DNA of 64,000 bases from the IMG/VR virus record IMGVR_UViG_3300031830_000001; one strand, 5' to 3'. Made by a program: the position numbers and the translations under genes. Shown here piece after piece: positions 6,501-63,635 of this stretch (the first letter of the stretch is position 1; every line of letters begins with the position of its first letter). Below the pieces are notes generated by a model, which was not told the DNA's origin, ran no database searches, and was given only the letters and a program-made list of their open reading frames with translations. The DNA is from an uncultured virus (IMG/VR IMGVR_UViG_3300031830_000001). Its lineage: Duplodnaviria; Heunggongvirae; Uroviricota; Caudoviricetes.

Positions 6501-7373
6501 CGTGCTTTTGTGATAAGTTAAATTTAATCTAACAACATCTCCAATAGTTAATCCTGTAAATCCTGGGGCAACTAATTTCTTTTCTTTATTTAGTTTGCTA
6601 AAAGTCGCTAAAAGAAGATTGCCTAAATATTTTGCCACCTTTAAAGAGTGAATTGCACCGTTACTTAAAACAACCGAGCGAATATCTTTTTTATGTCTAT
6701 CCCAGGGAGTATAAACTCTCTTACTAAAGAGAACGGGTTTCTTAGAACTAGAATCATACCCTCCCCATACGATTGCTTTATTTCGTAACGAGTTATCATT
6801 ATAAGAATAAGAAAATTCTAATACATTAGAATCAGAAAAAGTAAACTTAACGTTTGACAAAGACGCCTTTAATTTACCAATCCTGCATATATTATTCTCA
6901 TCAAAGTAAAAATACCAACCGCTTTGCTGACAAAGTAGTAAAACAGCGTCATAAGCTGATTGTGTCCCTAATTGCGTTTCAGGCGCAACTGGAGCGCCAT
7001 TTCCAGAGACAGAAAACGAATAAGAAACACCAGCTCTAGATAAAATATCAATAAGTAACTCTCTAGAATATTTAATTACATTTGTAGGTGTAGTAATATC
7101 ATCTAAAAAATAATCCGATAATTTTTTAGAACCATCCTGAGCTTCTACAGCTAGTTCACCCGTATTCTCCTTATAAGTTATGGAGGAGATATAATAAGTG
7201 CCAACTTTTTCGGCATTTTCATAGACAACTAACTGTTTCCATAGTTGGAGATTAGCAGAATTAGAAACGACTAAGCTGATTCTTCCAATGCCATCACAAA
7301 TTGCATGAGTTCGACTATATGATACAACAAGGTGGGAAATATTTTCTGAATCAGCAATAATCTGATAGTTCAT
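3507..7373 (-). CDS. Large tail tip/central fibre protein (hub-like N-terminus, beta-propeller-like C-terminus)
   Basis: N-terminus resembles the upstream hub protein (LRNKAIVWG vs LRNRVVVYG); ATGA overlap supports start at 7373. Confidence 0.65.
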   Translation of the reverse strand: MNYQIIADSENISHLVVSYSRTHAICDGIGRISLVVSNSANLQLWKQLVVYENAEKVGTYYISSITYKENTGELAVEAQDGSKKLSDYFLDDITTPTNVIKYSRELLIDILSRAGVSYSFSVSGNGAPVAPETQLGTQSAYDAVLLLCQQSGWYFYFDENNICRIGKLKASLSNVKFTFSDSNVLEFSYSYNDNSLRNKAIVWGGYDSSSKKPVLFSKRVYTPWDRHKKDIRSVVLSNGAIHSLKVAKYLGNLLLATFSKLNKEKKLVAPGFTGLTIGDVVRLNLTYHKSTSIITDIEVNVSSAGVKTTLTLDKRCPRLFAWFDWGTNPNYNDYVYVGTQGGGVKRKYIGGTGWYDFSSGLGNLTVKDLRIYAGNFICVADDGYAYIRSEGTNWSKLRPGSFSDGINEYTEEEVKAISCSIDQVTGDYFVGYNYYELDTDFHTFRSWVVQFDSSGKVKNKFPVSLYFTNRVLIHDLDRHSANTFIAGIGDISDFLKVGERNTYPIKAPEETLPFIFGPQLLTTSGGVVEDKHQDNYLYSSSGVLVYSGAFLSGLARDVCSYIKSFDWISTHSLYDNGRIFTLSFHGGYGLSIYDFTPSGVTTLTGLPIRHPNLISGMIPPFGYNNRFLHLEKKADHPELHYITIDTYGQGQRPTSSDGNKIFHGKYIFTDYSYTTLSGTEIIKNREIFVDEPQNLGHFNFCFRGQGGLYNQDVLCDNGVILAPFWAEYGNHLGLFLVRYNVETQEKRIVKVLEESSLYDVHCLYVSPPIKIPYASAAVIGANFWVLDKKSIIDGQCRILSNVPIISSYLIFVALGNKVFNDDNYEQIEATPPVDFNEFCFVKRVYWAKVESDGACSNPESGGNGLIVWLLGSELPTGNNNIICRGHVLDEKGTTIIDAYIEFNYQSFYYKPWVPNPCCYDPEESVYPTWISRRAGGFVRLNVNKDGFIIPLLTKSSIADSPAPLISVPLVAPSGYLPSYIGAHRLSRGYNFYIGKIDPLTGDEVQIPIPVFYEWDLGSVLPHVCPYIDFFDNTIYVFTSCWGGGNLYGIDYNTGILKKFITGFYFEMAFGEKCESAPPVIHNGILFRRSAFWVFRTTVTGYFVFPVLYQNYFGTTNLVNVELLPINVEVSKVYPYITYNPFEYWLPSVSGSLVPFSGGLGTKIYTIDFSAFSYTSLTGNDERIVDIMEIPYIASGIVESGIIDIENMRYIAIPVNKSLYIQDIDLNTSPAVLKYSNNLIYHVETSNIPPTPFVFMNDLSTFYEFDKEIWRTCPNPSAKILTIRVDDLL

Positions 7374-8395
7374 AATCGCACCATTAAATCCGTAGTATAA
7401 CCGCCAGAACCCCAGCGATGTTCTACCTGATAAACATACCAATTTCTATTATTACTCAACCCAGGATAATTAATTCTTACAATACTCCTCGCCTGAATAT
7501 TTGGGTTTCCCTCTACACTTAACCTCATACTCACATCTAACCTATTTAGCTTATTTAGATTATAATTAGCGGTCTTTTGGCATAGATTTGTATTGCCGAT
7601 AAGATTAGAGGCAATAACAACACTTTTATAAAACCCAGAAGGCAAAACTGGTATTGTTGTACCCGTATCTGGGTCAAATGATGTTGCCGAAGAGGCTGTA
7701 GCATGGGCTTTTTTATCACCATAAACAACAACCCTATTTCGTAAATTTGTTTCATTTTTTACCTTTTCTATAGATATAATTGACATCTCATTCAAAGTAA
7801 TGGATGGAGTAATAGTTCTTTCATCTACTGTATCACCTGGTTGTCCTGTGTCTCCAGTCATTATATAAGGTTTTCGATTTTTAAAGTGGATAGTTCCATT
7901 TCTATCTGCCCACAATGTCCAAGTTACTATATCAGCTATAGATTTACAATAATCAAAAACTGAAATCAAATTTACTTCAGCGTCAACATTAATAGCTAAA
8001 GTAAATCCCGTAGCCTGATAAGAATAACTAGTCAAACCCGCTAAAGCTAGCACATCCCTTACTAAATTTTCTGCAGCTATATTACGCCTTTTGAAGGGAT
8101 TTTCAGGATTATCACTGGCTACAAAATAATCGATAGCCCTGCTCATGTAATCATGAAAGGTTAATGTATATTCTCCTTGAGGTATCTTTAGGTCTTTTTG
8201 CTTTAAATATCCCTTAAAAACTTTCGTATAGGAATTTACATAACCTAGAAAAATCTCCACCTCATCACCAATATTCAAGGATTCATCCTCACATTCTACT
8301 ACCGCAATTGTAACTGGCGATGTATGGCTTTCACTAATTACTACTGATTTGATATTTTCAACACCAGTACAAGTAGCATAAAGAATTTTACTCAT
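7370..8395 (-). CDS. Baseplate hub/tail protein
   Basis: Two genes after tape measure; GNPNIQARSIV..WYVYQVEHRW..GYTTDL C-terminus is typical of hub proteins. Confidence 0.65.
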   Translation of the reverse strand: MSKILYATCTGVENIKSVVISESHTSPVTIAVVECEDESLNIGDEVEIFLGYVNSYTKVFKGYLKQKDLKIPQGEYTLTFHDYMSRAIDYFVASDNPENPFKRRNIAAENLVRDVLALAGLTSYSYQATGFTLAINVDAEVNLISVFDYCKSIADIVTWTLWADRNGTIHFKNRKPYIMTGDTGQPGDTVDERTITPSITLNEMSIISIEKVKNETNLRNRVVVYGDKKAHATASSATSFDPDTGTTIPVLPSGFYKSVVIASNLIGNTNLCQKTANYNLNKLNRLDVSMRLSVEGNPNIQARSIVRINYPGLSNNRNWYVYQVEHRWGSGGYTTDLMVRL

Positions 8396-31086: not shown

Positions 31087-31329
31087 TTAAACATCTTCTG
31101 TAAAAATTTCAGCGGGCATTGTAGAAAAAAGTCGCTTTATCAATGAATGAAATGTCATTCCTCGACCAGAACTTGCAGTTATTGAATAAATATACTCATC
31201 ACCCGCTGGAGATTTACAACTTACAGAATAAACATTACCTTCTTTACTCATTATAAAATTATATCCCTTTTTTCTTAGAAGTTTGAATTTTTTATCTTCG
31301 TCCATAAAAAGCTCCTTTCTAGTTTTCAT
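31087..31329 (-). CDS. Hypothetical protein
   Basis: ORF in operon. Confidence 0.5.
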   Translation of the reverse strand: MKTRKELFMDEDKKFKLLRKKGYNFIMSKEGNVYSVSCKSPAGDEYIYSITASSGRGMTFHSLIKRLFSTMPAEIFTEDV

Positions 31330-32314
31330 TTACTTCTCCATCAGTCATTAAACAATGAGGACTAAACCAAATTCGCTCTTTAAACCTGTTTTCAGCGTTT
31401 TTATTCTCTCGCTTACTATTACCGTAAGAACGCCACCCTATCCAACTTATTTTATACCATCCCAATTCTTCTAAAATATTATGCTCGCCTTCATAACCAC
31501 AAAGTGCAATTCTAAGGTGGGAATTATTAGAATTTTCAATGCACCAGTTTCTTACTTCTGCAGCTAAATTATCATCATCAACTGTGTAAATATTTTCTGA
31601 ACGAACTTCTTTTGAATACGGGGGGTCAAAAAATATACCTACAGTTTTAAATTCAGATAAAACTACTCCAGTAATAACACTTTTCCAATCTTCACAACAA
31701 ACCTTTACATGACGTAGTCTGTTTGATAGCTGAGTAAGATAAGCTAAAACATCAAAATCTTTACCTCTAATGATTCCGCTACTAGGTGCTGGTAGGTTAG
31801 GTCTTTTTCTACAAACACCCTCTAATCCAGCGTCTTTACCTAAAACCTTTTTCCAGTTAACCAATTTACCATCAATTTCAGTCCAGGGGGCATTTCCCTT
31901 ACACCAATCACTCCCAGCGCCCAGCCAGATAGATACCCCCCATACCCACCAGCCTGCCACCTTGGGGTCATAAAAATCAAGGTCAGTGGGAACTCTAGAT
32001 GCTAATTCAGGTTTAGCATATTTAACTAGCCAAATATGTCTAGCTGTTAAATCTGCTTCATTGACGGGATTATCTATATGCTTTGCGACCTCATCTGGCG
32101 CATTTTTAACAGCCCGCCAAAAATTAGCAACAAAATAATCTTTATCATTAATAATCTCAATTTTAGGAATCGAGGGTCTTAAAAACAAAACCGCGCCAGC
32201 ACCAAAAAATGGTTCTATATAACAATCTACATCACCAAAAAACCGCCAAACAGTGTCAGCGATACTCCTCTTATTACCAAACCAAGGAAATGGGGCAATA
32301 TATCTTTTATCCAT
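31319..32314 (-). CDS. DNA adenine methyltransferase (D12/Dam-like class)
   Basis: PFPWFGNK, YIEPFFGAG, FFDPPY. Confidence 0.9.
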   Translation of the reverse strand: MDKRYIAPFPWFGNKRSIADTVWRFFGDVDCYIEPFFGAGAVLFLRPSIPKIEIINDKDYFVANFWRAVKNAPDEVAKHIDNPVNEADLTARHIWLVKYAKPELASRVPTDLDFYDPKVAGWWVWGVSIWLGAGSDWCKGNAPWTEIDGKLVNWKKVLGKDAGLEGVCRKRPNLPAPSSGIIRGKDFDVLAYLTQLSNRLRHVKVCCEDWKSVITGVVLSEFKTVGIFFDPPYSKEVRSENIYTVDDDNLAAEVRNWCIENSNNSHLRIALCGYEGEHNILEELGWYKISWIGWRSYGNSKRENKNAENRFKERIWFSPHCLMTDGEVNEN

Positions 32315-32318
32315 TATC

Positions 32319-32771
32319 CTAATACTCCTTGGGTTTAATCAAAATAATCTCCTTACTGGGTAAATATCCTAAATATTTGATAGCTAGGTTCTTTACATCT
32401 TCCCAATTCAAACCTCCTAAACCACATCCTACAGCAGGCAATGCAATATATCTAGATTCCTCTATATAACTTAGCATATCAAACCCTTTCTCTATCCACT
32501 CAAGTTTTGATTTATCTCTCCAGTGGTCTTTTGTAGCAAATAAAATCCAAGCAGGTCGAATATCACCATAGAAACAGACCCTTACCACATCACCTGGTGA
32601 AAACGAACCGCGATTGCAAATCTCTTTATATGCAGTAAAAAGAATCTTATGGCGAGACATAATGTCTTTAGCCAATCCAGCACCCGCAACGCCAACACAG
32701 TTTACAGGTACAACAATTTCAAAATGTGAAGGTGTATCAAAAATATTGAAATAATTAGCTATCCTCAGCAC
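32319..32771 (-). CDS. Macrodomain protein, DarG/TARG1-like
   Basis: VNCVGVAGAGLA, FATKDHW..KS, IALPAVGCGLGGLNW. Confidence 0.85.
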   Translation of the reverse strand: MLRIANYFNIFDTPSHFEIVVPVNCVGVAGAGLAKDIMSRHKILFTAYKEICNRGSFSPGDVVRVCFYGDIRPAWILFATKDHWRDKSKLEWIEKGFDMLSYIEESRYIALPAVGCGLGGLNWEDVKNLAIKYLGYLPSKEIILIKPKEY

Positions 32772-33917: not shown

Positions 33918-33991
33918 TGCCCCAGGCAGGATTCGAACCTGCATGACTAACGGTTTAGAAGACCGCTGTTCGTCCATTGAACTACTGGGGC
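33918..33991 (-). tRNA. tRNA-Arg (anticodon UCU), CCA not encoded
   Basis: Cloverleaf: acceptor GCCCCAG/CTGGGGC, D stem GTTC/GAAC, anticodon stem GCGGT/ACCGT with loop CTTCTAA, T arm GCAGG-TTCGAAT-CCTGC. Confidence 0.9.
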
Positions 33992-34383: not shown

Positions 34384-34412
34384 ATTATAGCACACTTTTT
34401 CAAGTTTGTCAA
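34384..34412 (-). promoter_or_regulatory. Sigma70/SigA consensus promoter
   Basis: TTGACA-17 nt-TATAAT with TG extension. Confidence 0.85.
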
Positions 34413-37816: not shown

Positions 37817-38839
37817 ATGATAAAGAAAAAACAATTTGAAAATTTACTTGAAGAGTTAGCTGAGTATATAACGAATCCTGATGACACTTTGAAGGTAATC
37901 TCATCTGGAATTGTTAGTTTAGACATTATTTTGGGAACTGGAGGGATTCCTTTAGGTAGATTTATAGAGTTATTTGGTCCTCCTGCCAGTGGTAAAACGA
38001 CAATTGCGATGACAATTGTTAGTGAGTTTTTAAAAGCTGATGATAGGTTTGTATCATATTGTGATGCTGAGCAGGGGTTATCTGAGTCTTTTATTAGTTA
38101 TTTTATTACGCCTGAATTGCGAGAGAGATTTTTGCTACTTCAGCCCGGCACTCTAGAAGATGCGCTTACAGTTTGCGAAAAGGCGATTAATTCAAAGTCA
38201 TGCAGCCTTGTTATTTTAGACTCAATTGGGTCTTTAGTTCCTCAGGCGGTTTTGAAAAATAATTTGGGCGATAGTCATGTTGCTGTTTTATCTAGAATCT
38301 TTACCCAGTTTTTACAGCGAAATATGTCTAATGCGCGAATAAATGCGTGTACTTTTATCGGAATCAACCAGGTTAGAGCTGACTTTGGTAGTTATATAAA
38401 GTCATTTGCTACACCAGGTGGGTTTGCTTGGAAGCATCTAATTACTTTAGGCATTGAGTTAAAGTTCCCTAGTATGATAAAGCAGGGAGATGATAAAATC
38501 GGTCAGAATACTCCGATTGTAATAAAGAAGAACAAGTTAGCGACCCCTTTACGTAGTTTTCCAGTTCCGATTATTTATGGGAAGGGCGTAGATAAGATTA
38601 GAGATATTATTCAATTTGGCGAGGTTGCTGGTATAATTAATAAAAGAGGCTCGTATTATGTCTTTGATGATATAAATCTTGGATTAGGTATGAATAATGC
38701 GATTAAATTTTTAGAATCTAGTCCAGAAGTACTTGACAAAATCAAAGAAAGGTGCTATAATTTACTTGAAAAATTTGATAACGTATCTTTTGAGGTTCTA
38801 GAGAAAGGAGATGATGATGCCGAGGTCGATTTCAGTTGA
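37817..38839 (+). CDS. recA: RecA/UvsX-like recombinase
   Basis: GGIPLGRFIELFGPPASGKTT, DAEQ, VILDS, INQVR, TPGG, KNK. Confidence 0.92.
   Translation: MIKKKQFENLLEELAEYITNPDDTLKVISSGIVSLDIILGTGGIPLGRFIELFGPPASGKTTIAMTIVSEFLKADDRFVSYCDAEQGLSESFISYFITPELRERFLLLQPGTLEDALTVCEKAINSKSCSLVILDSIGSLVPQAVLKNNLGDSHVAVLSRIFTQFLQRNMSNARINACTFIGINQVRADFGSYIKSFATPGGFAWKHLITLGIELKFPSMIKQGDDKIGQNTPIVIKKNKLATPLRSFPVPIIYGKGVDKIRDIIQFGEVAGIINKRGSYYVFDDINLGLGMNNAIKFLESSPEVLDKIKERCYNLLEKFDNVSFEVLEKGDDDAEVDFS
38733..38761 (+). promoter_or_regulatory. Consensus promoter inside recA 3' end
   Basis: TTGACA-17 nt-TATAAT with TG extension. Confidence 0.85.
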
Positions 38840-42543: not shown

Positions 42544-42571
42544 TTGACAAACTGATAAAGTATGTTATAAT
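42544..42571 (+). promoter_or_regulatory. Consensus promoter
   Basis: TTGACA-16 nt-TATAAT with TG extension. Confidence 0.8.
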
Positions 42572-42605: not shown

Positions 42606-42866
42606 ATGAAAAACCCAGATGCGGAAATTATTTCTGTAATGCAGGTAAAAGCCTTGAACAATAATATTGTTCAGGTAGATGTTAGTTATAAAAAAATTAT
42701 TTACAAAGATGGGCAGCCTGAGGAAATGATATTTAGTGCATCAGGCTTTGATAGAGATATATTCAGGGCATATCAAAAAGCTATGTTAGAAATATATAAT
42801 GCTCTAGGAGTGATAGAAGAATTTGATGGTGTTGACTTAGTACAATCTAGTTCTTCAGTATTATGA
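42606..42866 (+). CDS. Hypothetical protein
   Basis: AAAGGA RBS after promoter. Confidence 0.55.
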   Translation: MKNPDAEIISVMQVKALNNNIVQVDVSYKKIIYKDGQPEEMIFSASGFDRDIFRAYQKAMLEIYNALGVIEEFDGVDLVQSSSSVL

Positions 42867-43069
42867 TTTATATTCATAGATTAAAAAATAATTTAGTTAT
42901 AAAAAATCCTCATAATCTGGGGATTTACATAACGAAGGATGGAAATCTAGTCATTCCTATATTTGCGCTAACGGCAATTCTTAAATTTATATTATTTAGA
43001 AAATTTATTAATTATAAAACGGTTCAAATGGTTGTTAATGAATATAAAGAATGGATAGAAAGGAGTTGA
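42863..43069 (+). CDS. Hypothetical protein
   Basis: Coupled small ORF. Confidence 0.45.
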   Translation: MIYIHRLKNNLVIKNPHNLGIYITKDGNLVIPIFALTAILKFILFRKFINYKTVQMVVNEYKEWIERS

Positions 43070-43071
43070 AA

Positions 43072-43266
43072 ATGGAGTGGAGGCTTCAAGACAATATAAT
43101 TGAGGAAGATTATCATTACGATAATTTTGATTTCTATTCTATAGCAACGGATGAAGAAAAAGAAAGCTGGTGGGCGTGCGTCTTAGGTGATAAACCTGAG
43201 ATTGACTATGAGGTGAGTTATGAAGATTGGCTAAATCTAATTTTACAGGAGGTTAATTATGCGTAA
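43072..43266 (+). CDS. Small very acidic hypothetical protein
   Basis: AAGGAG RBS; D/E/aromatic-rich. Confidence 0.55.
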   Translation: MEWRLQDNIIEEDYHYDNFDFYSIATDEEKESWWACVLGDKPEIDYEVSYEDWLNLILQEVNYA

Positions 43267-43564
43267 ACTAATTGTAACTAGACACAAAGGAGCTGTTGAT
43301 TGGATTCACAAACATTATCCCAATACATTAGATTGGGAGGTAAAGGCGGAAGTTTCTGAAGTCGATGTTAATGGCGCAATTGTAATCGGGGTATTGCCCC
43401 CTCCTTTAGCATCTCTAACGGTTAAATATTTTGCAATTGAATTTAAGTCAGGGAAATCTCCTAGAGGACAGGAGTGGACTTTAGAGGATATGGAAAATGC
43501 CGGGGCAACCCTTCAGCAATACGAGATAAGGAAGGGTGATGAGGATGTATCATTCCTATCCTGA
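43259..43564 (+). CDS. csx16: Csx16-like (Cas_VVA1548 family) protein, candidate ring nuclease
   Basis: TRHxGAxxW, VIGxLPxxLA, YF, RGxE, GAxLxxYxI match the Csx16 pattern as I recall it; AGGAGG RBS. Confidence 0.75.
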   Translation: MRKLIVTRHKGAVDWIHKHYPNTLDWEVKAEVSEVDVNGAIVIGVLPPPLASLTVKYFAIEFKSGKSPRGQEWTLEDMENAGATLQQYEIRKGDEDVSFLS

Positions 43565-44411
43565 AGTTTTCAGCCTGTATCATAAACAAGTTAGAGATAT
43601 TTTTTCTACGCCTGTCGTTGTTGAAGAAAAAATTGACGGCAGTCAATTTTCTTTTTACAAAGACAGGAATACTGGTACTGTTCATTGCTTCTCAAAGAAT
43701 GTTGAGATTAATTTGGAGTATCCTCAAAGCCTTTTTAAACTTGCCGTTGATTTTGTTTTATCTATTCAGGCGTTATTAGCTCCTGGGTATATTTACAGAG
43801 GTGAATGTATAAGCAGGGAAAAACACAATGTTATTAAATACTCTAGAACGCCTAAAACTTTTATTGTTGGTTTTGACATTGATAAAGGGTATGAGGATTA
43901 TCTTCCTCCTGAAGAGAAGCTGGAAGAATTTAATCGATTAGGTATTGAAGTTGTGCCAGTCCTCTACAGTGGAGTTGTATCTAACGTAGAAGAATTAGAA
44001 AGGTTATTAGATAGAGAATCTTTTTTAGGAGGTTCGCTTGTTGAGGGGGTTGTAATTAAAAACTATAACCTTTTTGGCGCTGATAAGAAAATTTTAGTAG
44101 CTAAGATTGTATCAGATAAATTTAAAGAAGTGGCTAAGCAGGTTTGGTCTCAATCTAATATAGTAAAAGAGCTGGGTACAGCTTTGAGGACTGAGGCTAG
44201 GTGGCAGAAGGCTGTAATCCACTTGAAAGAGCGAGGATTATTAGAAGATAGTCCGAGGGATATTCCTAGGATTATTGATGAGGTTTTAGCAGATGTTAGA
44301 AAGGAAGAGTATGAAAATATTTGCGAGGCTTTATTCAATCATTACTGGAAAGATATTTCCCGTGAAATTATCAAAGGAATCCCAGAGTGGTACAAAAATC
44401 AGTTGGGATGA
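43536..44411 (+). CDS. RNA ligase (Rnl2-like nucleotidyltransferase)
   Basis: EEKIDGS (KxDG), YRGE, GFDI, EGVVIK, AKIV...FKE. Confidence 0.85.
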   Translation: MMRMYHSYPEVFSLYHKQVRDIFSTPVVVEEKIDGSQFSFYKDRNTGTVHCFSKNVEINLEYPQSLFKLAVDFVLSIQALLAPGYIYRGECISREKHNVIKYSRTPKTFIVGFDIDKGYEDYLPPEEKLEEFNRLGIEVVPVLYSGVVSNVEELERLLDRESFLGGSLVEGVVIKNYNLFGADKKILVAKIVSDKFKEVAKQVWSQSNIVKELGTALRTEARWQKAVIHLKERGLLEDSPRDIPRIIDEVLADVRKEEYENICEALFNHYWKDISREIIKGIPEWYKNQLG

Positions 44412-44504
44412 GTTTAGTACACGTACTGATACTGATGGTAAGTTTATCGAAGGTTTACTTAGCGGAGAATATGAGTATAATGAATTTGGAGGTCGATAAA
44501 TTTT

Positions 44505-46873: not shown

Positions 46874-46902
46874 TTGACATTTTTCAAGCTTTATGCTATA
46901 AT
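46874..46902 (+). promoter_or_regulatory. Consensus promoter (TATAAT abuts the next annotated ATG)
   Basis: TTGACA-17 nt-TATAAT with TG extension. Confidence 0.85.

Positions 46903-47711: not shown

Positions 47712-47722
<11 letters not shown>
47498..47722 (+). CDS. Cys-rich small protein, paralog 2
   Basis: CxxCKY..YCG..PP..YVCDNY; AAAGGAG RBS. Confidence 0.65.
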
Positions 47723-48330
<608 letters not shown>

Positions 48331-48914: not shown

Positions 48915-49309
48915 AGGTTTGCAGACTTACTGAAGAATCTAAACTGCCAACTAAAAAATATGCGGGTGATGCTGGTTTTGACTTGTATTCTACTATTGAT
49001 GTAGTCATTGAGCCTCATACAACCGCAATTATTCCTACAGGCATCGCTATTGAATTGCCAAGCGGATTTTTTGGCTGGATTACAAATAAAAGCTCTAAAG
49101 AATACCTAGTCGGAGCAGGGGTTATAGATAATAACTATAGAGGCGAGATAAAAGTCAGAATATTTAATGTGCTAAATAAAAAAATTTATATCAAAGAAGG
49201 TGATGCAATCGCTCAGCTAATTCTTTTACCTCAGATTAATGATGCAATTGAGCTGGTTTTGTTTCTTTCCGAAACAGATAGAAATAATGATGGAGGAATT
49301 AATCGATAG
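48911..49309 (+). CDS. dut: Trimeric dUTPase
   Basis: DAGFDL, PTGI, GVIDNNYRGEI, GDAIAQL. Confidence 0.9.
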   Translation: MKVCRLTEESKLPTKKYAGDAGFDLYSTIDVVIEPHTTAIIPTGIAIELPSGFFGWITNKSSKEYLVGAGVIDNNYRGEIKVRIFNVLNKKIYIKEGDAIAQLILLPQINDAIELVLFLSETDRNNDGGINR

Positions 49310-50159
49310 AAAGAAAGTTTCAGGTAAAATGAATTTTTTAGGTGGATTTACGGCGGTAGAGTGTAATACAATAATTTGTGGCGACTCTCTAGAAGTATTA
49401 AAAACTTTTCCAGATAGTTTTATTGACTGTGTAATTACATCACCACCTTACTATGCTGGAAAGGAGTATGAGGATACTTATAAAACTCAATCTGGATATG
49501 AAAAATACCTGAATTCTCTAATCAATATTTTTATAGAGTCTGAAAGGGTTTTGAAACCTGGCGGTCATTTGTGGATTAATGTTGATGATGTCCATACTAG
49601 TTTGAAGTCGGAATATAAGCGTAATATTACGCTTCCTACTCACGCCTTTTTGGCTGTTGAGCTATCAAAGGTTTATGATTATAAAGATTTAGTGCTTTGG
49701 AGGAAGATTAGAGGAAAGCACGCCAGCGGAGGAGCTTCTAGATTATTGGGTAGTTATGGAAGATTTGGTTCGCCAGGGTCTATTCCTATTGTTGGGGAGT
49801 GTGAATTTATTTTATGGTTTAAAAAGAAAGGCAAAAGAACTGATGTTACTGATGAAATGAGAAAATTATCTAGCCTAACCAGTGAGGAATTTAAGGTATA
49901 TGGTATGCAGGTCTGGGAGGTACGACCAGAGAATGTTTTAAGAGCTAAACACCCAGCGCCGTTTCCTGAGGAAATTCCTGCTAGGATAATAAAATTATCA
50001 ACTTTTGTAGGAGATTTAGTTCTCGACCCTTTTGTAGGAAGCGGTACTACAGCCGTTGCTGCAAAAAAGTTAGGTAGAAATTTTATCGGAATAGATATAA
50101 ATCCTAAATACTGTGAGATTGCAAATGAGAGATTAAATTCCTTAGATAGAAAGGAGTAG
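49287..50159 (+). CDS. DNA methyltransferase, N4-cytosine/N6-adenine beta class
   Basis: TSPPY, HPAPFP, VLDPFVGSGTT, FIGID; start uncertain. Confidence 0.9.
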   Translation: MMEELIDRKKVSGKMNFLGGFTAVECNTIICGDSLEVLKTFPDSFIDCVITSPPYYAGKEYEDTYKTQSGYEKYLNSLINIFIESERVLKPGGHLWINVDDVHTSLKSEYKRNITLPTHAFLAVELSKVYDYKDLVLWRKIRGKHASGGASRLLGSYGRFGSPGSIPIVGECEFILWFKKKGKRTDVTDEMRKLSSLTSEEFKVYGMQVWEVRPENVLRAKHPAPFPEEIPARIIKLSTFVGDLVLDPFVGSGTTAVAAKKLGRNFIGIDINPKYCEIANERLNSLDRKE

Positions 50160-54781: not shown

Positions 54782-55204
54782 TTACTCGGAAACAAAATAT
54801 CTCCCATCCAGATTGTAGAGTATATTACATCCCTCCCAGACGGAGGAAGGAATATCATCTACACTAACATCTACGGATTCCGTGATGGCAAGTATATTGT
54901 CATCATCACCACCGATTTTGAATCCCTTTACTTTCCACCCGTGAATTCCGATTACGGGGTTGTCCGGACTTGCGGGGAGGAATCCCTCTACACCTACCAG
55001 AATATCCCCCTTCTGGAGAGGGACAAGGGCTTGTTCGTTATTGGAGCGAAATCTAGATGTGCGAATAAAACTTGCGGGAGCAAGCCCCCCGTTCCGTAAA
55101 ACAAAAGTTGCGGAAAAACGGTTACTGGTTGCTCCGCCCCCAACCCAAAGGGTGGGGAATCCCTTTTGAGTTTTTTCAGTGAATACGTATAGTATATCGT
55201 TCAT
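54782..55204 (-). CDS. Hypothetical early protein, paralog A
   Basis: LWVGGGATS..FSA.FV; similar to 56455-56868; AGGAG RBS. Confidence 0.8.
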   Translation of the reverse strand: MNDILYVFTEKTQKGFPTLWVGGGATSNRFSATFVLRNGGLAPASFIRTSRFRSNNEQALVPLQKGDILVGVEGFLPASPDNPVIGIHGWKVKGFKIGGDDDNILAITESVDVSVDDIPSSVWEGCNILYNLDGRYFVSE

Positions 55205-55216
55205 TTTATACTCCTA

Positions 55217-55522
55217 TTAATATGGTACACTTATACCATCCATGAAGTTCGGCATACCCTCGAAGAAAAGTTTGACGGTTGCAAATCGAGGGTCGCTACC
55301 ACAAACAGCACTAGCTCCGATTTTGTTTGCCAAATCATAAATATGCGCCATTAGGCGTTCTTGCTTTTTTAGCAGGCGTTCTACATCTTCCTCCATACAG
55401 AGGCGCTCATTTATTGTGTGCAATTTTCGAGTTAGGCTAATTAACTCAGCCAATTCTTCGGGGGTTGCAGTAGTATATTTTGCAACCGATAGTGTGAACG
55501 ATATGATATTGATAGTGTCCAT
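55217..55522 (-). CDS. Hypothetical protein
   Basis: AAGAAAGGAG RBS; ERLC and DPR motifs. Confidence 0.65.
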   Translation of the reverse strand: MDTINIISFTLSVAKYTTATPEELAELISLTRKLHTINERLCMEEDVERLLKKQERLMAHIYDLANKIGASAVCGSDPRFATVKLFFEGMPNFMDGISVPY

Positions 55523-55567
55523 TTTATACTCCTTTCTTGTTTTTTTTTTATTTCTCACGCGAAGCGT

Positions 55568-55670
55568 GAATTTTTAGATTTCTCTACTCGCCATTTTTAA
55601 GCCGTTTAGGGATATGACATTCCCAAAGCTTTGAGGGTGAATTTTTTGGCGAGATGAAAATTTTTTCTCG
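55568..55670. repeat. Copy of the early-region repeat element
   Basis: GCCATTTTTAAG at 55590, then AAGCTTTGAG, TTTTTGGC, GAAAATTTTT. Confidence 0.75.
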
Positions 55671-55704
55671 CCCCGCCCATCGGACAAAAGGCGGGGCGAT
55701 AGTT

Positions 55705-56139
55705 TTATTTCTCAATCAAGATTTCGATTTTTTGCACCTCCACAGGGTCCCCAGGTGGATTATCAATTGATTTCGTTTCTCCCTCCAATATCCATATTCC
55801 GCTGTGAGTTTTAGAATACTCCTTGATTGTGTACTCGTAGAGTGCGCCATTTAAAGCGCGCTCATACCTTTCGAGAAGCTCCTCAAAGCTTTTCTCGTCT
55901 ATCTCCTGCTCCCCCTCATAAACGCAGACGAGAAAATCTCCGTCCTCGTTATCCCTTACGGGATAGAGGTAAACAAATCCATCATTACTGTATCGCCGGA
56001 TACCCCGGCAGATGATGGTATAGCCTTTGGGAATAGGGTCGCCCTTTCGGCAGATATAATACGGGAAAGCAGCTTCTTCGGGATAGATGTCCCGAATGGC
56101 AATTACTTCAAAAATTTTGTTGTTGTATTTGTAAAACAT
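55705..56139 (-). CDS. Hypothetical protein
   Basis: AAGAAAGGAG RBS. Confidence 0.65.
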   Translation of the reverse strand: MFYKYNNKIFEVIAIRDIYPEEAAFPYYICRKGDPIPKGYTIICRGIRRYSNDGFVYLYPVRDNEDGDFLVCVYEGEQEIDEKSFEELLERYERALNGALYEYTIKEYSKTHSGIWILEGETKSIDNPPGDPVEVQKIEILIEK

Positions 56140-56188
56140 TTTTTATTCTCCTTTCTTGTTTTTTATCTTCTGCCCCGTGAATCGGGGC

Positions 56189-56300
56189 GAAAAATTTTTA
56201 GCCCGCGCCTAATGCCATTTTTAAGTTGCCCAGGGGGGGGGGGGGGGAGGTGGCGCCCCCGAAGCTTGGGCGGCATTTTGGCGCGCTGGATTTTTTTTCT
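56189..56300. repeat. Copy of the early-region repeat element containing a G15 tract
   Basis: GCCATTTTTAAG at 56214, G15 at 56233-56247, AAGCTTGG, TTTTGGC, GGATTTTTT. Confidence 0.75.
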
Positions 56301-56366
56301 TACCCGCCCCTTGTCCGGTGAGGGGTGGACACTGAACGCTGAGCAGTGTCCACCGGGGCGGTGTTG

Positions 56367-56407
56367 GTAAACAAAAATGCCGGGGCTACGTCGTAAGTAG
56401 CCCCGGC
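56367..56407 (-). terminator. Intrinsic terminator after 56455-56868
   Basis: gccggggctac/gtagccccggc stem followed by TTTTTGTTT on minus strand. Confidence 0.8.
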
Positions 56408-56454
56408 TCCGGTGCCGGCTAGTTAGCCGGCGAGGAAATGGGGGAGAGTGGGCG

Positions 56455-56868
56455 CTACTCAGCTATAAAGTAGCGTCCATCTCTGTTGTGATAGATTTCG
56501 CATCCCTGCCATACGCTGGCAGGGATGTTGTCTAGGCTAATATCGATATGCTCGATATTAGCAATTGGATTGCCTTGCTCATCGGCTCCAAAGCCGACGA
56601 TACGGCGGGCATCGACAAAAACTTCAGGATTGTCCGGCGTCGCCGGGCGTCTCCCGCTCAGTTCAACAACGATGTCTCCCTCTCTGAGACCAACCAGTGC
56701 CTGCCCGCTATTGCACCGGTGCCCGTGCCGGGCAATGAAGCACGCCCGGGCTAGCTCCCCCGCCCGCATCACGAAGCGGGCGGAGAATTTCGAGGTAGTG
56801 GCGCCCCCGCCCACCCAGAGGGCGGGGTTGCCACGGGAGGTTTTTGTAACTTCTAATTTTGCGTCCAT
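56455..56868 (-). CDS. Hypothetical early protein, paralog B
   Basis: LWVGGGATTSKFSARFV..., ends DGRYFIAE; GGAAGGT RBS. Confidence 0.8.
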   Translation of the reverse strand: MDAKLEVTKTSRGNPALWVGGGATTSKFSARFVMRAGELARACFIARHGHRCNSGQALVGLREGDIVVELSGRRPATPDNPEVFVDARRIVGFGADEQGNPIANIEHIDISLDNIPASVWQGCEIYHNRDGRYFIAE

Positions 56869-56883
56869 TTTTGCACCTTCCTT

Positions 56884-57306
56884 TCAACTGATTTTCAGTA
56901 GTTCGACGTACGGGTTTGCCACCCACACGTGAGCAACAGCCCAAGGAAAAAACATCCTCCTCACCCCTTCGGGGGAGGCTAAGAAAACCTCTCCCACCCC
57001 CCTAAACAGGGGGAGAACGGCGTGGACGGGCATCGGGGCATATACTGTTTTAATATCGATGTTTAAATTAACGAAATATGAAGAAACAATACATGCGTGC
57101 TTCCCGTTGTCGAAGACGAAATACCCCTCCAGTTCTTCTAGAAGTGGGCTTTTATCACGGACTGCCCACTTCGGGTTTCGCCCGTTCCGCCCCCAGGTGT
57201 CAACCTGGGGGCCGAATGGGACTCGGACGGACAGGTACGTGCTACTCGACAGAGAGAGTAGCGCACTTGATACTCTTTTTAGTGTTCGTTTATCGAAAGT
57301 ATTCAT
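56884..57306 (-). CDS. Hypothetical protein
   Basis: GGAGGT RBS; tightly packed. Confidence 0.55.
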   Translation of the reverse strand: MNTFDKRTLKRVSSALLSLSSSTYLSVRVPFGPQVDTWGRNGRNPKWAVRDKSPLLEELEGYFVFDNGKHACIVSSYFVNLNIDIKTVYAPMPVHAVLPLFRGVGEVFLASPEGVRRMFFPWAVAHVWVANPYVELLKIS

Positions 57307-57308
57307 TG

Positions 57309-57620
57309 TTACACCTCCATTTTAATAATTAATGCCGGAGGCACGCTCCGGGTAAATGCGGGGAAGGTATCGTAATCCTCCCCCTCCACCAGGGGAGCTA
57401 GCATCAAAGCTAGCTCCTCATCCGAAATGATTTCCCCGTAATGCCACCAGTTACCGGACATGTCGCGGATGAAGAAGTCCGCGACGCCGGTTACGGAGAC
57501 GTCTTTAATTTCGACGTCTCCATGGGCTTCACAGTGGCACGGGGCGTTGAGAACGGGTGGCACGTCTAAATCGTGCCACTTCCACTCGCAACCGCAAGAC
57601 ATTGTAATCCTGATTTCCAT
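57309..57620 (-). CDS. Hypothetical protein with Cys/His cluster
   Basis: CGC...CxxH; AAAGGAG RBS. Confidence 0.6.
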   Translation of the reverse strand: MEIRITMSCGCEWKWHDLDVPPVLNAPCHCEAHGDVEIKDVSVTGVADFFIRDMSGNWWHYGEIISDEELALMLAPLVEGEDYDTFPAFTRSVPPALIIKMEV

Positions 57621-57844
57621 TCTTACTCTCCTTTCTTAAGAGATAAACTAATCTTACTTCTGTTCTTGTGTATGCAAGAACAGTTATATCCCTGTTCGCA
57701 GCATTTTTGAGGATGCTGCGAGAATATCACCCCTTCCCCTCACGGGGAAGGGGGCGGATTGAAATTGGGGTTCCTCCCCCGTTAGCGGGGGAAGAAAATC
57801 AGGAAGGACACGAACAGTAAAATTAGTAGTACGTAAAGCATCTG

Positions 57845-58111
57845 TCATTCTCCTTTCCACATCTTGACCAGAACGCTAATTAATTTTCTATATTCTTTAT
57901 CGTTGTCATTGTTTGAAAAAGAAGTGATACGATATGCCAGACGGAAAGCCTCATCCAAATACTGTCTGTTCTGAGCATCCATTAGCTTAAAGCTAGCTCG
58001 GCTCGTAAGATACACCTGACGGGGAGCTTCCATCTTCTGGATAGCTCCCTCTATGATGCTAACTTTAAGCCAACTTGGATAGGTCGCAGGGTCGGGGTCA
58101 AACGGTTTCAT
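57845..58111 (-). CDS. Hypothetical protein
   Basis: GGGAGGG RBS; ATGA overlap with upstream ORF. Confidence 0.55.
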   Translation of the reverse strand: MKPFDPDPATYPSWLKVSIIEGAIQKMEAPRQVYLTSRASFKLMDAQNRQYLDEAFRLAYRITSFSNNDNDKEYRKLISVLVKMWKGE

Positions 58112-58302
58112 TCTTCCCTCCCATCCGGGCGCCCCAGGTCGAGAGGGCGCCGAAAAGCATTGACCAGCGTCCACACACGCCAGCCGTAACGCCAGTCGTG
58201 CTCGGCGGCGTAGTACGCCGTACGGACATAATCCCGCCGGCGAGCAGCCTTGCGCTCACGGCGATTAATAAAGTTTTTGAGATTCTGAGTTTCCTTCATC
58301 AC
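58108..58302 (-). CDS. Small basic hypothetical protein, first gene after early promoter
   Basis: AAAGGAG RBS. Confidence 0.55.
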   Translation of the reverse strand: MMKETQNLKNFINRRERKAARRRDYVRTAYYAAEHDWRYGWRVWTLVNAFRRPLDLGRPDGREE

Positions 58303-58333
58303 TTGCTCCTTTCATTCTTCTAACTTTGCTTTT

Positions 58334-58362
58334 AGCATACCAACCAAATTGTCCGATGTCAA
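58334..58362 (-). promoter_or_regulatory. Sigma70-type promoter heading the early region
   Basis: TTGACA-17 nt-TATGCT with TG extension. Confidence 0.75.
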
Positions 58363-58657
58363 GAGTTTTTAGCAACTCTAACCAAACTCCAATCTTGCGT
58401 TCTATTTTTTAATCTTCCGTTCTGCAGTGCAAATTGCAAAAAATATAGCATGCAAGCTTCCAACCCCGCAATCCGCATTGCTGCAACAAATGTTGCGCCC
58501 GAAAAAATTGCCTGCAACGAGAATTGCTGGCGCTGGTGTACTCCCCCTCCCACCACCGCTCTCAATCCGTAAATTCTCGATAATCTCCCCTTAACTCTCT
58601 CTATCCATCTTTAGCCACTCTACTCTCCTCTCTGATATACTTACTAATGGAGGATTT

Positions 58658-59002
58658 ATGATTCCCGCCGAAATTTTTGACAGAGTGAAGATAGACGAGG
58701 AGTATAAGTATCTCTTAACGAAGTACAGGTGGAGGTTAATTAATGGCTACCTGGCGACGAATGATTTTCATGGGGGGCTTACTTATTTACATAGGTTCTT
58801 GGTCAACCCGCCGAAAAATTTTAAGGTTGAGCATATTAACGGCGATAAATTAGATAATCGGCTGTGTAATCTGAGGATTAATAATAACATTAAATGGAAA
58901 ACCAAGCCCGAGGAGGAAAAAGGCTTGGTTAGGATAAAAGGGAAAATCTATAAATATAAATATGAAAAGGGTAAAAATATTTATTTAGGGCGGGTTTATT
59001 AG
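58658..59002 (+). CDS. HNH endonuclease
   Basis: YLHRF, VEHINGDKLDNRLCNLR; GGAGG RBS. Confidence 0.85.
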   Translation: MIPAEIFDRVKIDEEYKYLLTKYRWRLINGYLATNDFHGGLTYLHRFLVNPPKNFKVEHINGDKLDNRLCNLRINNNIKWKTKPEEEKGLVRIKGKIYKYKYEKGKNIYLGRVY

Positions 59003-59456: not shown

Positions 59457-60458
59457 CTATTCCTCCTGATTATCTAAATTGATACAGTTGGGATTAAACC
59501 AGATTCTCTCCTTATACCTGTTTTCAGCATTAGGAGAGTTTTTGTTTTTACTGTTTCCATAAGCTCTAACTGCCTTACCCTCGACTTTTTTCCAACCGAG
59601 TTCCTCTAGCTCGTTATGCTCTCCCTCATATCCGCATAAAGCGATTCTATACCTTGGATTGTTACTGTTTTCTATACACCATTTCCTGACCTGGGCGGAT
59701 AAGTTATCTGCATCCTCATTATACAAACCATCATCTCGTAAATCTTGCTTGTAAGGAGGGTCAAGGAATATTCCCACAGATTTTCCATAATCCAGCGCGC
59801 CCTTAGTAACTACCCTTGACCAATCCCCACAACAAACTCTAACAAATCTCAACCTCTCACTTAAAGTGTTAAAATATTCAATTAAAGAACTTTGTTTAGC
59901 GATAGTATTAATTCCTGTCTCGCCATGACCTATATGAGGTTTTTGTTTAGATACCCCATCTGGTTCGTTAATAGTTTTTTTATCAACAAGTTTCCCCTCA
60001 TGTTCAGTCCATTTCCCATCTCCGCTGCACCAACCGCTACCTATCCAGGAGCAGATTCCCCACACCCACCACCCAGCTACTTTTGCATCATAAAAATCTG
60101 GGTCAGCAAAAATTCTCTCTTGAATATTGGGTAGTCCATATTTAATTAACCAAATATGCCTCGCCGTCAAGTCGGCTTCATTTACAGGATTATCAGCATA
60201 ATAAGCTACTTGTTCAGGGTCATGTTTAACAGCCCGCCAAAAATTGGCAATTAAGCTGTCTTTATCATTTACGGTTTCTAATTTAGGCGTAGTAGGTCTT
60301 AGAAACAAGACCGCACCACTGCCGAAAAATGGTTCAACATATAAATCAACATCTCCTAATTTATCCCAAACAATATTAGCTACTCTTGATTTCCCTCCGA
60401 ACCAGGGAAACGGTGGACGATGTTTTACCTCATTCATGATATTACTCCTTTCCTCCAT
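59457..60458 (-). CDS. DNA adenine methyltransferase (D12/Dam-like), paralog of 31319-32314
   Basis: PFPWFGGKS, EPFFGSG, FLDPPY. Confidence 0.9.
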   Translation of the reverse strand: MEERSNIMNEVKHRPPFPWFGGKSRVANIVWDKLGDVDLYVEPFFGSGAVLFLRPTTPKLETVNDKDSLIANFWRAVKHDPEQVAYYADNPVNEADLTARHIWLIKYGLPNIQERIFADPDFYDAKVAGWWVWGICSWIGSGWCSGDGKWTEHEGKLVDKKTINEPDGVSKQKPHIGHGETGINTIAKQSSLIEYFNTLSERLRFVRVCCGDWSRVVTKGALDYGKSVGIFLDPPYKQDLRDDGLYNEDADNLSAQVRKWCIENSNNPRYRIALCGYEGEHNELEELGWKKVEGKAVRAYGNSKNKNSPNAENRYKERIWFNPNCINLDNQEE

Positions 60459-61661: not shown

Positions 61662-63635
61662 CTAAACATATTGAACATATCTCTGACCATTGTATAGCAT
61701 TGCACAGTATTTATTCTCTCCAATTTTTATCCATATATCAGAACCTACCTTTACCTCTTCCAAAATGTTAATAATATTTCCGTAATAAAGTTTTCCTACT
61801 ACAGCGCCCGTAGGCTTGTCTCTTACATTTAAAATATTCACAACTACTCTGCCTTTTCTGCTGGACGGCTCATCTTCTAATCCATGTACTTCTATATACT
61901 TGTTACCATTATACACAAAAGCTGAAAATTTGTCAAGGCCTAATTTTACCCATTTATTGCCTGAAGCATCTAAAACAATAGATTCAATCCCAATAGTCTC
62001 GCCTTTTCTCAGGTATTCTACAATAGGCGCGCCGATATTTGGAGCTTTCCTAATTCGCAAGTTGTCAACTAGAACAGTTCCTCTATATTTATATTCAGGC
62101 TCTGGAGGCGGGGGTGAGGGAGTTCCAGAAAGATACTTTTGTTTAAATTCGGCAGTAGTAATATTTTTATCTACATGATTGCTCTCTAAGCCGTATAGTT
62201 TACCTTCAAAGTTACCATCGGCGGAAAATTGCCACAACTCCCACTTTGTCCAATCTAAAGGTCGATAAGAATCTTTCTCACCGAACCAGGGCAAATCAGT
62301 TCCGTATCTAGCTACCCATAACCCGTATCTAGACCAACCAGACCATCTACTAACATAGACATTCCACCATGAGCCTCTTGTATAAATCAAAGGCGGGTGT
62401 AAATTATATTGCTTCAGCCACTCTTCTAGCAATTGAGCTAGTTTCTGAATTACGGAGGTAATTTTCTCTTTAGATTGCCCGTTATCAAATTCACAATCTA
62501 AAGCAACTGGAAAATCTGGAATTTTATCGCCAAATGATTTCTTAAAAAACTCAAAATGAGCCTCAGCACTTACTTTAGGGTCAACAAAGATATAGCAACT
62601 AACGGGTATCTTAGCATCTTTTAGAATTTGCCAAAACTCCTCAAATTTAGAGTCCTTAGTATAATCTCCTTGAGTACATTTGATAATGACCCCAATGACA
62701 TTATTTTCTCTCATTTTATTTACATCTAAAATCCGACCATTCCACTTAGAAATATCTAGAATAACCTCCCGCCTATCAAATGGAATATCTATATTAAGAA
62801 GGTTCATTATATTACTAATTTTACATCCTACGATGTACCCCCCTCCACCTGCGAAAAGAATACCAACTACTTTATTACTTCCCTGTTCTAAAATAGGGGA
62901 GCCACTATCTCCAGGGGCGCCTCCCATTTTACAAATAAAGCAATCCTTTAATGTATAAGTTGTCCCATCATAATCAACATTAACTGTAACTCCGATAGCA
63001 GTAACAGAACCAAATGTAGCATCTGTAGAACGCCCATATTTCTTTACAGACATCCCAACTGAGGGGTCTTTCCACCCATTTACTGTAGGAAGTAAATTCC
63101 AGATTCCTGTCAAATATTTAGCGGTTGGTTTAGCCAGGGCTGCATCAACTGTTGTACCATTTTCCAATTTGATAAATTTATATAAAGTCCCCACAACCTC
63201 AGTACCCCCATCATATTTACCAGGTTGGTAAATGCTATCTCCAATTTGAGCTTTATTTGTATTAGCAAATACGTGATTATTTGACAAAAGTAAAAATTCA
63301 CCACTAGTTTTTTCCTGTACAACTAGAGAAAGAGTTCCCGCCGTAACTTTTTCATGCCCGATAGAAATACTCCCCTGTAAAGGTCGAATCTTAGCCGTCC
63401 TATTATAGGCTTTAAATGAATCTACTTTAATAACTTTAACTTTGCTTAGGCTATAACTATTTAGATAGGGAATGTCTTTATCTGTAAAGATAACTAATCC
63501 CTCATCATCATAACCCACTGCTAAAGCTCCACTCCTAATAAAAGAGTCCTCATGTTCTTCTTTAAGAGCTTTAATTTCCTCCTTAGATAAGCTCTTAAAG
63601 GCTCGTTTAAATTGATTAATATACTTTCTAACCAT
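61662..63635 (-). CDS. Modular endolysin: trypsin-like serine protease + GH25 muramidase + two SH3b-like domains
   Basis: LSNNHV / VDAAL / PGDSGS triad motifs; LDISKWN, KCTQG, ALDCE, LWVARY, LWQFS, VDKN; Pro linker; NLRIR..P and LNVR..P repeats. Confidence 0.85.
   Translation of the reverse strand: MVRKYINQFKRAFKSLSKEEIKALKEEHEDSFIRSGALAVGYDDEGLVIFTDKDIPYLNSYSLSKVKVIKVDSFKAYNRTAKIRPLQGSISIGHEKVTAGTLSLVVQEKTSGEFLLLSNNHVFANTNKAQIGDSIYQPGKYDGGTEVVGTLYKFIKLENGTTVDAALAKPTAKYLTGIWNLLPTVNGWKDPSVGMSVKKYGRSTDATFGSVTAIGVTVNVDYDGTTYTLKDCFICKMGGAPGDSGSPILEQGSNKVVGILFAGGGGYIVGCKISNIMNLLNIDIPFDRREVILDISKWNGRILDVNKMRENNVIGVIIKCTQGDYTKDSKFEEFWQILKDAKIPVSCYIFVDPKVSAEAHFEFFKKSFGDKIPDFPVALDCEFDNGQSKEKITSVIQKLAQLLEEWLKQYNLHPPLIYTRGSWWNVYVSRWSGWSRYGLWVARYGTDLPWFGEKDSYRPLDWTKWELWQFSADGNFEGKLYGLESNHVDKNITTAEFKQKYLSGTPSPPPPEPEYKYRGTVLVDNLRIRKAPNIGAPIVEYLRKGETIGIESIVLDASGNKWVKLGLDKFSAFVYNGNKYIEVHGLEDEPSSRKGRVVVNILNVRDKPTGAVVGKLYYGNIINILEEVKVGSDIWIKIGENKYCAMLYNGQRYVQYV

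Follow-up and report, generated by a model that had tools for sequence, protein, structure and literature searches.

A divergent Csx16-family protein of a tailed phage as a predicted cA4 ring nuclease and candidate type III anti-CRISPR

Based on family membership, genomic context and selection, we propose that a small Csx16-like protein encoded by an uncultured tailed phage of hot springs destroys cyclic tetra-adenylate (cA4) and blunts type III CRISPR signalling, a reading that we consider probable. The gene lies on the + strand at 43259..43564 of the window, by which we mean the whole stretch of 64,000 nucleotides that was analysed; it begins with ATG and encodes 101 amino acids (aa), and its product is a predicted cA4 ring nuclease and a candidate anti-type III CRISPR protein. 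As enzymes of the Csx16 family have been shown to destroy cA4, the phage gene most likely switches type III defence off, and because there is no cas locus around it the gene is an anti-CRISPR candidate. Dimer formation, cleavage of cA4 and the anti-CRISPR effect itself are what we infer.

The protein belongs to the Csx16/Cas_VVA1548 family. The original prediction had singled out a 101-aa protein carrying four motifs, and all of them are present in the translation: TRHKGAVDW at residues 7-15, VIGVLPPPLA at 42-51, RGQE at 69-72 and GATLQQYEI at 82-90. The family pattern that had been recognized in these motifs was borne out by profile searches. Pfam PF09652 (Cas_VVA1548) is the sole Pfam family at E<=1 and matches at E 9.6e-15 with 55 bits against a cut-off of 25, aligning residues 5-90 with profile positions 2-90 of 91, a full-length match. 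Three PADLOC Csx16 models (PDLC01635, PDLC01062 and PDLC01356) match at E 1e-13 to 1.5e-9, and the Csx16 portion of the PADLOC CARF-HEPN-Csx16 fusion model matches as well. NCBIfam TIGR02620 (Csx16, hypothetical equivalog domain) scores 35 bits (E 1.3e-8), which is under its cut-off of 46.35. Full matches to Pfam and PADLOC but a score below the TIGR02620 cut-off mark the protein as a genuine though divergent family member, which we therefore file in the broader Pfam family, as part of a divergent virus-associated branch, rather than in the narrower model. A phmmer search of PDB sequences gave no match for the protein.

The residues that define the family are in place. R8, H9, A12, G44 and P47 are kept in 53/53 homologues from both clades of the tree described below, R69 in 52 and G70 in 50 of the 53, and the phage protein has them all. 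Of these, the Arg-His pair comes after strand 1 and the G..P residues after strand 3, and the Arg-Gly pair sits in a loop. It likewise retains the invariant R8, G44 and P47 of a 61-sequence alignment, together with the near-invariant I5, H9, L50, A51, R69, G70, M78 and G82. According to excerpts of a review (PMC8284326), His, Arg and Asp/Glu make up the polar positions that Csx16 conserves, a set compatible with ring-nuclease chemistry. An AlphaFold2 model built from the 61-row alignment (pLDDT 95.2, pTM 0.84) has five strands and four helices, and this predicted fold contains the CARF-like core, a five-stranded sheet with flanking helices, that is described in excerpts of PMC12409355. Foldseek with the model against the PDB returned nothing at E<=0.001, the weak best rows being Cad1 CARF domains.

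The surrounding genome, of about 34% G+C, is that of a tailed phage. PHROG and Pfam searches of 65-69 ORFs identify genes for the large terminase, the portal and a probable major head protein, for a tape measure of 2063 aa and for tail proteins, the replication genes for a family A DNA polymerase, RecA/UvsX, DnaB and primase, and in addition ribonucleotide reductase, dUTPase, several DNA methyltransferases and two lysins including an endolysin. No other cas family was found in the 64-kb window by Pfam (69 ORFs plus 5 other proteins near csx16), a PADLOC scan of 52 window ORFs matched only Csx16, methyltransferase models and one DarG, and a search of the whole window for CRISPR-like repeats found none; the earlier statement that the window lacks cas genes and an array thus holds, Csx16 itself apart. 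An Rfam scan of the window detected only a tRNA, the tRNA-Arg(TCT) gene at 33918-33991 (-). The 8 kb around csx16 gave no blastn match among 50,697 phage records; in the comparison with cultured phages the terminase found one record, at 26% identity, and the DNA polymerase reached no more than 31%, identities so low that no cultured relative names the host. The extended -10 promoters, the strong Shine-Dalgarno sites and the GH25/M23/SH3 lysins of this genome are features often met with in phages that infect Gram-positive hosts. Sister genomes, all syntenic and 94-98% identical at the DNA level, comprise three contigs of IMG/VR with their counterparts in metagenomes, and the additional metagenome contig L037. 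The stretch occurs in public runs whose labels read hot springs or microbial mat metagenomes (24 rows from 20 studies, one of them possibly the source).

An exhaustive HMMER search yielded 600 homologues at E<=0.001, the best of which outside the protein's own cluster are 36-57% identical. The nearest relatives beyond the phage's own lineage (44-50% identity) sit on virus-like contigs or come without context, whereas the cas-adjacent Csx16 homologues are 27-34% identical to the phage protein. The nearest ESM Atlas clusters are Cas_VVA1548 clusters with 55, 293 and 53 members, and 83-88% of their labelled members are viral. A pattern scan of IMG/VR recovered 23 csx16 loci, namely the three sister genomes and 20 others at 29-47% identity. 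In the phage collection (50,697 records) the only homologue is that of Bacillus phage Shbh1, present in 2 records.

The genomic contexts of these genes were surveyed in two sets of loci. Eighteen virus-contig loci, left after the near-duplicates L006 and L023 had been dropped, were surveyed with Pfam within 4 kb (193 crude ORFs, each 85 aa or longer): none of the 18 has a cas family besides Cas_VVA1548, and eight carry hallmarks of phages or mobile elements, among them terminases, a portal, integrases, RecT and a phiEco32-type ligase. Another 18 loci, from cellular or metagenome sequences, were surveyed with PADLOC within 6 kb (106 ORFs, each 180 aa or longer); 14 of them have cas genes, CARF effectors or Csx3, and seven of those 14 have Cas10, while L026, L032, L035 and L052 have no cas gene, CARF effector or Csx3 within 6 kb. 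The two surveys differ in library and threshold, but as Pfam, too, picked up the cas genes in L042, the library does not account for the contrast. L042 is a complete III-B locus with Cas1, Cas2, Cmr1-6, Cas10, Cas6, Csx16 and Card1, in which Csx16 directly precedes Card1. One virus contig, L012, apparently has two adjacent Csx16-like genes, at 7352-7759 and 8001-8246, one seen by tblastn and the other by Pfam (E 9.5e-7).

A maximum-likelihood tree of 53 domain sequences, from which the near-identical L002-L004, L036-L038, L006, L023, L045 and L053 were left out, splits into two clades; its sampling by peptide patterns taken from window-like sequences biases which homologues were drawn. A starred branch (99/96) of length 0.56 divides the rows into 21 and 32. 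The 21-row clade holds 17 virus-contig rows, three short contigs and the phage-like 128-kb contig L040, with no cas-adjacent row, while the 32-row clade holds all 15 cas-adjacent rows and only two from virus contigs. The phage protein falls inside a starred 16-row subset of the virus-associated clade, at the end of a long terminal branch (1.31). Forcing it into the cas clade costs 18 log-likelihood units (AU p 0.047, a borderline value for a group that was named post hoc). The signature residues of the virus clade are S7, N45, L48, H49, A51, A54 and V57, and the phage protein departs from the clade consensus at six clade-typical positions, where it has T7, V45, P48, P49, T54 and Y57. Since the nearest relatives lie on virus-like contigs or come without context, the cas-adjacent ones are at most 34% identical and the tree placement agrees, the gene is better described as belonging to a virus-associated Csx16 branch than as a recent host capture; the original prediction of a captured host off-switch does not fit in so far as it implies a recent event.

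What is known of the family gives the proposal its chemistry. In excerpts of Hoikkala et al. 2025 (PMC12409355), the purified Csx16 enzyme broke cA4 down completely but left cA3 and cA6 intact; the statement in the original prediction that Csx16 degrades cA4 is borne out there for the cellular enzyme. The same excerpts place Csx16 in 68 type III loci, report that Csx20 also degrades cA4, and, for the 28,114 phage genomes of the Millard database, give 36 with AcrIII-1, four with Csx20 and two with Csx16. The deployment of ring nucleases by viruses as anti-CRISPRs is described in excerpts of PMC13148439 and PMC12830947, later papers of the same group. Full-text searching of the literature turned up no study in which a phage Csx16 had been tested as an anti-CRISPR. 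With Csx16 published as a cA4 ring nuclease and already counted in phages, the anti-CRISPR reading is credible but not new in kind: this is a known kind of protein with phage copies already in print, and what goes beyond that is only the virus-clade result and the coupling to an RNA ligase gene.

How does the phage protein compare with its characterized counterparts? It is like cellular type III Csx16 in size class, full-length profile match, invariant R-H, G..P and R-G residues and five-stranded alpha/beta fold, and for both a structural resemblance to DUF1874 is weak. It is unlike cellular type III Csx16 in that its gene sits in a phage, with no cas neighbour or array in 64 kb, and in its Pfam score of 55 bits, compared with 117-127 for L041 and for the copy in the III-B locus L042. 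In lying in a phage genome outside a CRISPR locus it resembles the two phage Csx16 homologues counted in PMC12409355, as excerpted. AcrIII-1/Crn2 (DUF1874) is the anti-CRISPR ring nuclease by which viruses destroy cA4 (Athukoralage et al. 2020, cited in excerpts of PMC13148439 and PMC12830947); the phage protein has no DUF1874 profile match (Pfam, E<=1), and the similarity of its model to solved DUF1874 structures is weak, below the level at which a shared fold could be claimed. Csx15 and Csx20, like the phage protein, are small stand-alone CARF-like proteins of the type III repertoire, predicted ring nucleases that are grouped with Csx16 as related in the published excerpts; the phage protein matches neither of their profiles, only Csx16 models.

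The long terminal branch and the six departures from the virus-clade consensus make an altered substrate or a loss of turnover possible. One alternative reading is that the virus-associated clade degrades cA3, cA6, a CBASS molecule or some other signal and counters a defence other than cA4-type III CRISPR. The starred branch that parts the clade from cas-adjacent Csx16, the clade's own signature residues, and the fact that the main text of PMC12409355, as excerpted, states no member of the clade as assayed all leave room for such a shift. We nevertheless judge it unlikely, as the residues common to both clades are those expected at the binding and catalytic site and published Csx16 stays cA4-specific even at a tenfold higher enzyme concentration (PMC12409355, excerpts).

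The other alternative is that the protein binds cA4 with slow or no turnover, as reported for Csx15. In excerpts of PMC13148439, Csx15, grouped with Csx16 and Csx20, is a good cA4 sponge and a very slow nuclease, and the divergence of the phage protein, with its long branch and its score below the NCBIfam cut-off, would be compatible with a similar loss of activity. Against this stand the retained R-H pair, R69 and G70; moreover, in the same excerpts sequestration is a poor strategy against the large amounts of cOA made by type III systems, and Csx15 is not seen in phages. Sequestration thus seems to us an improbable account of the protein, and we retain cA4 cleavage as the preferred reading.

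A sigma-70-type promoter, TTGACA-16-TG-n-TATAAT, lies at 42544..42571 (+) in a 65-base gap after an exonuclease gene and matches the consensus at 12/12 positions with a TG extension. Its -35, TG and -10 elements are identical in 4/4 sister contigs, whereas the spacer bases vary. Perfect promoters are rare by chance: the window has five where 0.09 are expected, and 0/100 shuffles reached five. The five perfect TTGACA/TATAAT promoters are found at 34384-34412 (-), 38733-38761 (+), 42544-42571 (+), 46874-46902 (+) and 61908-61936 (-); in 5/5 a TG immediately precedes the -10 hexamer or stands one base further upstream, and most start TTGACAAA. The earlier proposal that csx16 is expressed from the consensus promoter at 42544 is plausible, with this element as the operon promoter, in view of its score, rarity and conservation among sisters, and it is likely the start of the operon that holds csx16. 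Downstream follow ORFs of 86, 68 and 71 aa, csx16, an RNA ligase gene, a 64-aa CxxC protein, DnaB and primase, all abutting or overlapping, and the stretch from the promoter to csx16 has no terminator-like site on the + strand. The 86-aa ORF (42606..42866, +) has no Pfam match above cut-off and a weak match to phrog_31556 (E 0.0016); the 68-aa ORF (42863..43069, +) overlaps it by 4 bases, the acidic 71-aa ORF (43051..43266, +) overlaps csx16 by 8 bases, and neither of these two has a family in Pfam, PHROG or PADLOC. As read from the sequence, a Shine-Dalgarno element, AGGAGG at 43247-43252 (+), lies six bases 5' of the csx16 ATG. Contigs from 4/4 metatranscriptome libraries cover csx16; with DNA carry-over possible, transcription, start, strand and level are not readable from these contigs.

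The RNA ligase gene (43536..44411, +; Pfam PF09414, E 1.1e-19; phrog_548, E 5.9e-27) gave no match to PDB sequences with phmmer. Its ORF opens with GTG at 43536 and has ATG codons at 43539 and 43545 after a GGAAGGG motif, so that it begins within the final 20-29 bases of csx16, and the two genes are probably translationally coupled. None of the 193 neighbour ORFs of the 18 other virus loci is an RNA ligase by Pfam, and the pairing is therefore lineage-specific. Just 3' of the ligase gene, at about 44441-44443, is a strain-variable junction, where the sister contig L002 has about 180 extra bases and contigs of two RNA libraries continue into unlike sequence. The overlap and probable coupling of the genes might suggest that the Csx16-like protein assists the ligase in metabolizing or repairing phage RNA, such as by processing the ends of cleaved RNA, instead of inhibiting signalling. 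We give this very little credence: ring nucleases leave 2',3'-cyclic phosphate ends behind and have no healing action on them (PMC12409355, excerpts), the pairing does not recur in the other virus loci, and neither a kinase nor a phosphatase that would heal ends was seen in the window.

Selection on the gene speaks for a function that matters to the phage. Among the four lineage copies of csx16, pN/pS is 0.019-0.082 in 6/6 pairs, with 8-18 synonymous against 1-4 non-synonymous differences per pair, and the reading frame is intact in every copy. The gene is real, needed and under strong purifying selection in the sister phages. A decaying or functionless ORF, for which one might point to the absence of a PHROG family and to Shbh1 as the single cultured phage with a homologue (35% identity over 56% of the query), is disfavoured and very improbable in the face of pN/pS values of 0.02-0.08, intact frames in all copies, a strong Shine-Dalgarno and the retention of family-invariant residues.

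Several other features of the window stand out. A stand-alone DarG-like macrodomain of 150 aa is encoded at 32322-32771 (-) (PADLOC DarG, E 3.8e-32; Pfam Macro, E 2.2e-6). It matches PDB entries 5m3i (E 3e-21) and 5m31 (E 2e-16), which are titled 'RNase III inhibitor' and 'Appr-1-p processing domain protein' and which we take to be DarG macrodomain entries. No DarT was seen beside the gene, whose product is a candidate for countering, on the phage's behalf, DNA ADP-ribosylation of the DarT type. Four DNA methyltransferase-like ORFs, at 31322-32314 (-), 47712-48113 (+), 49239-50156 (+) and 59460-60458 (-), likely serve anti-restriction functions; two have a D12-class N-terminal part, one is of the N6_N4 type and one is short. 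A G+C-rich block at 54800-58700 (42-60% G+C, compared with 34% in the phage) is a variable mosaic island: conservation is 96% in one sister contig and 81-93% in a second, and a third lacks most of it. Two paralogous genes, at 54785-55204 (-) and 56458-56868 (-), are 51% identical, and one of the two lies within this block.

What would a Csx16-like protein do for the phage? Upon infection, Cas10 of a host type III CRISPR system would sense phage RNA and make cA4. The phage protein, a small stand-alone member of the Csx16 family with a CARF-like alpha/beta fold that would act as a dimeric, metal-independent phosphodiesterase, may then bind cA4 and cut it to linear products, so that cA4-activated effectors (Csx1/Csm6, Card1/Can and CARF-TM types) would remain inactive and the phage would evade growth arrest. 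Transcription of csx16 with the DNA-replication genes from a strong host-type promoter, as the operon structure suggests, would fit the need to act early. A bolder proposal has two parts, which we put forward jointly and hold as doubtful. Virus-borne Csx16-like proteins might constitute a ring-nuclease lineage that is old and adapted to viruses, standing beside AcrIII-1/Crn2 as a parallel AcrIII family, rather than repeated recent captures from host CRISPR loci; and in this thermophilic phage, together with the coupled RNA ligase, the protein might form a two-step counter-defence module that silences the cA4 alarm and then re-seals RNA cut by Csm6/Csx1-type nucleases.

To our knowledge, viral ring nucleases are the main route by which viruses defeat type III CRISPR immunity based on cOA signalling, and the viral families shown experimentally to date are AcrIII-1 and the SAVED-type AcrIII-2. 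An anti-CRISPR of the Csx16 type, if borne out, would add a third viral family, and a compact, probably thermostable cA4-degrading tool would follow. If the virus copies do form a large clade of their own, surveys of cultured phages, with Csx16 in two of 28,114 genomes, would underestimate the use that phages make of Csx16.
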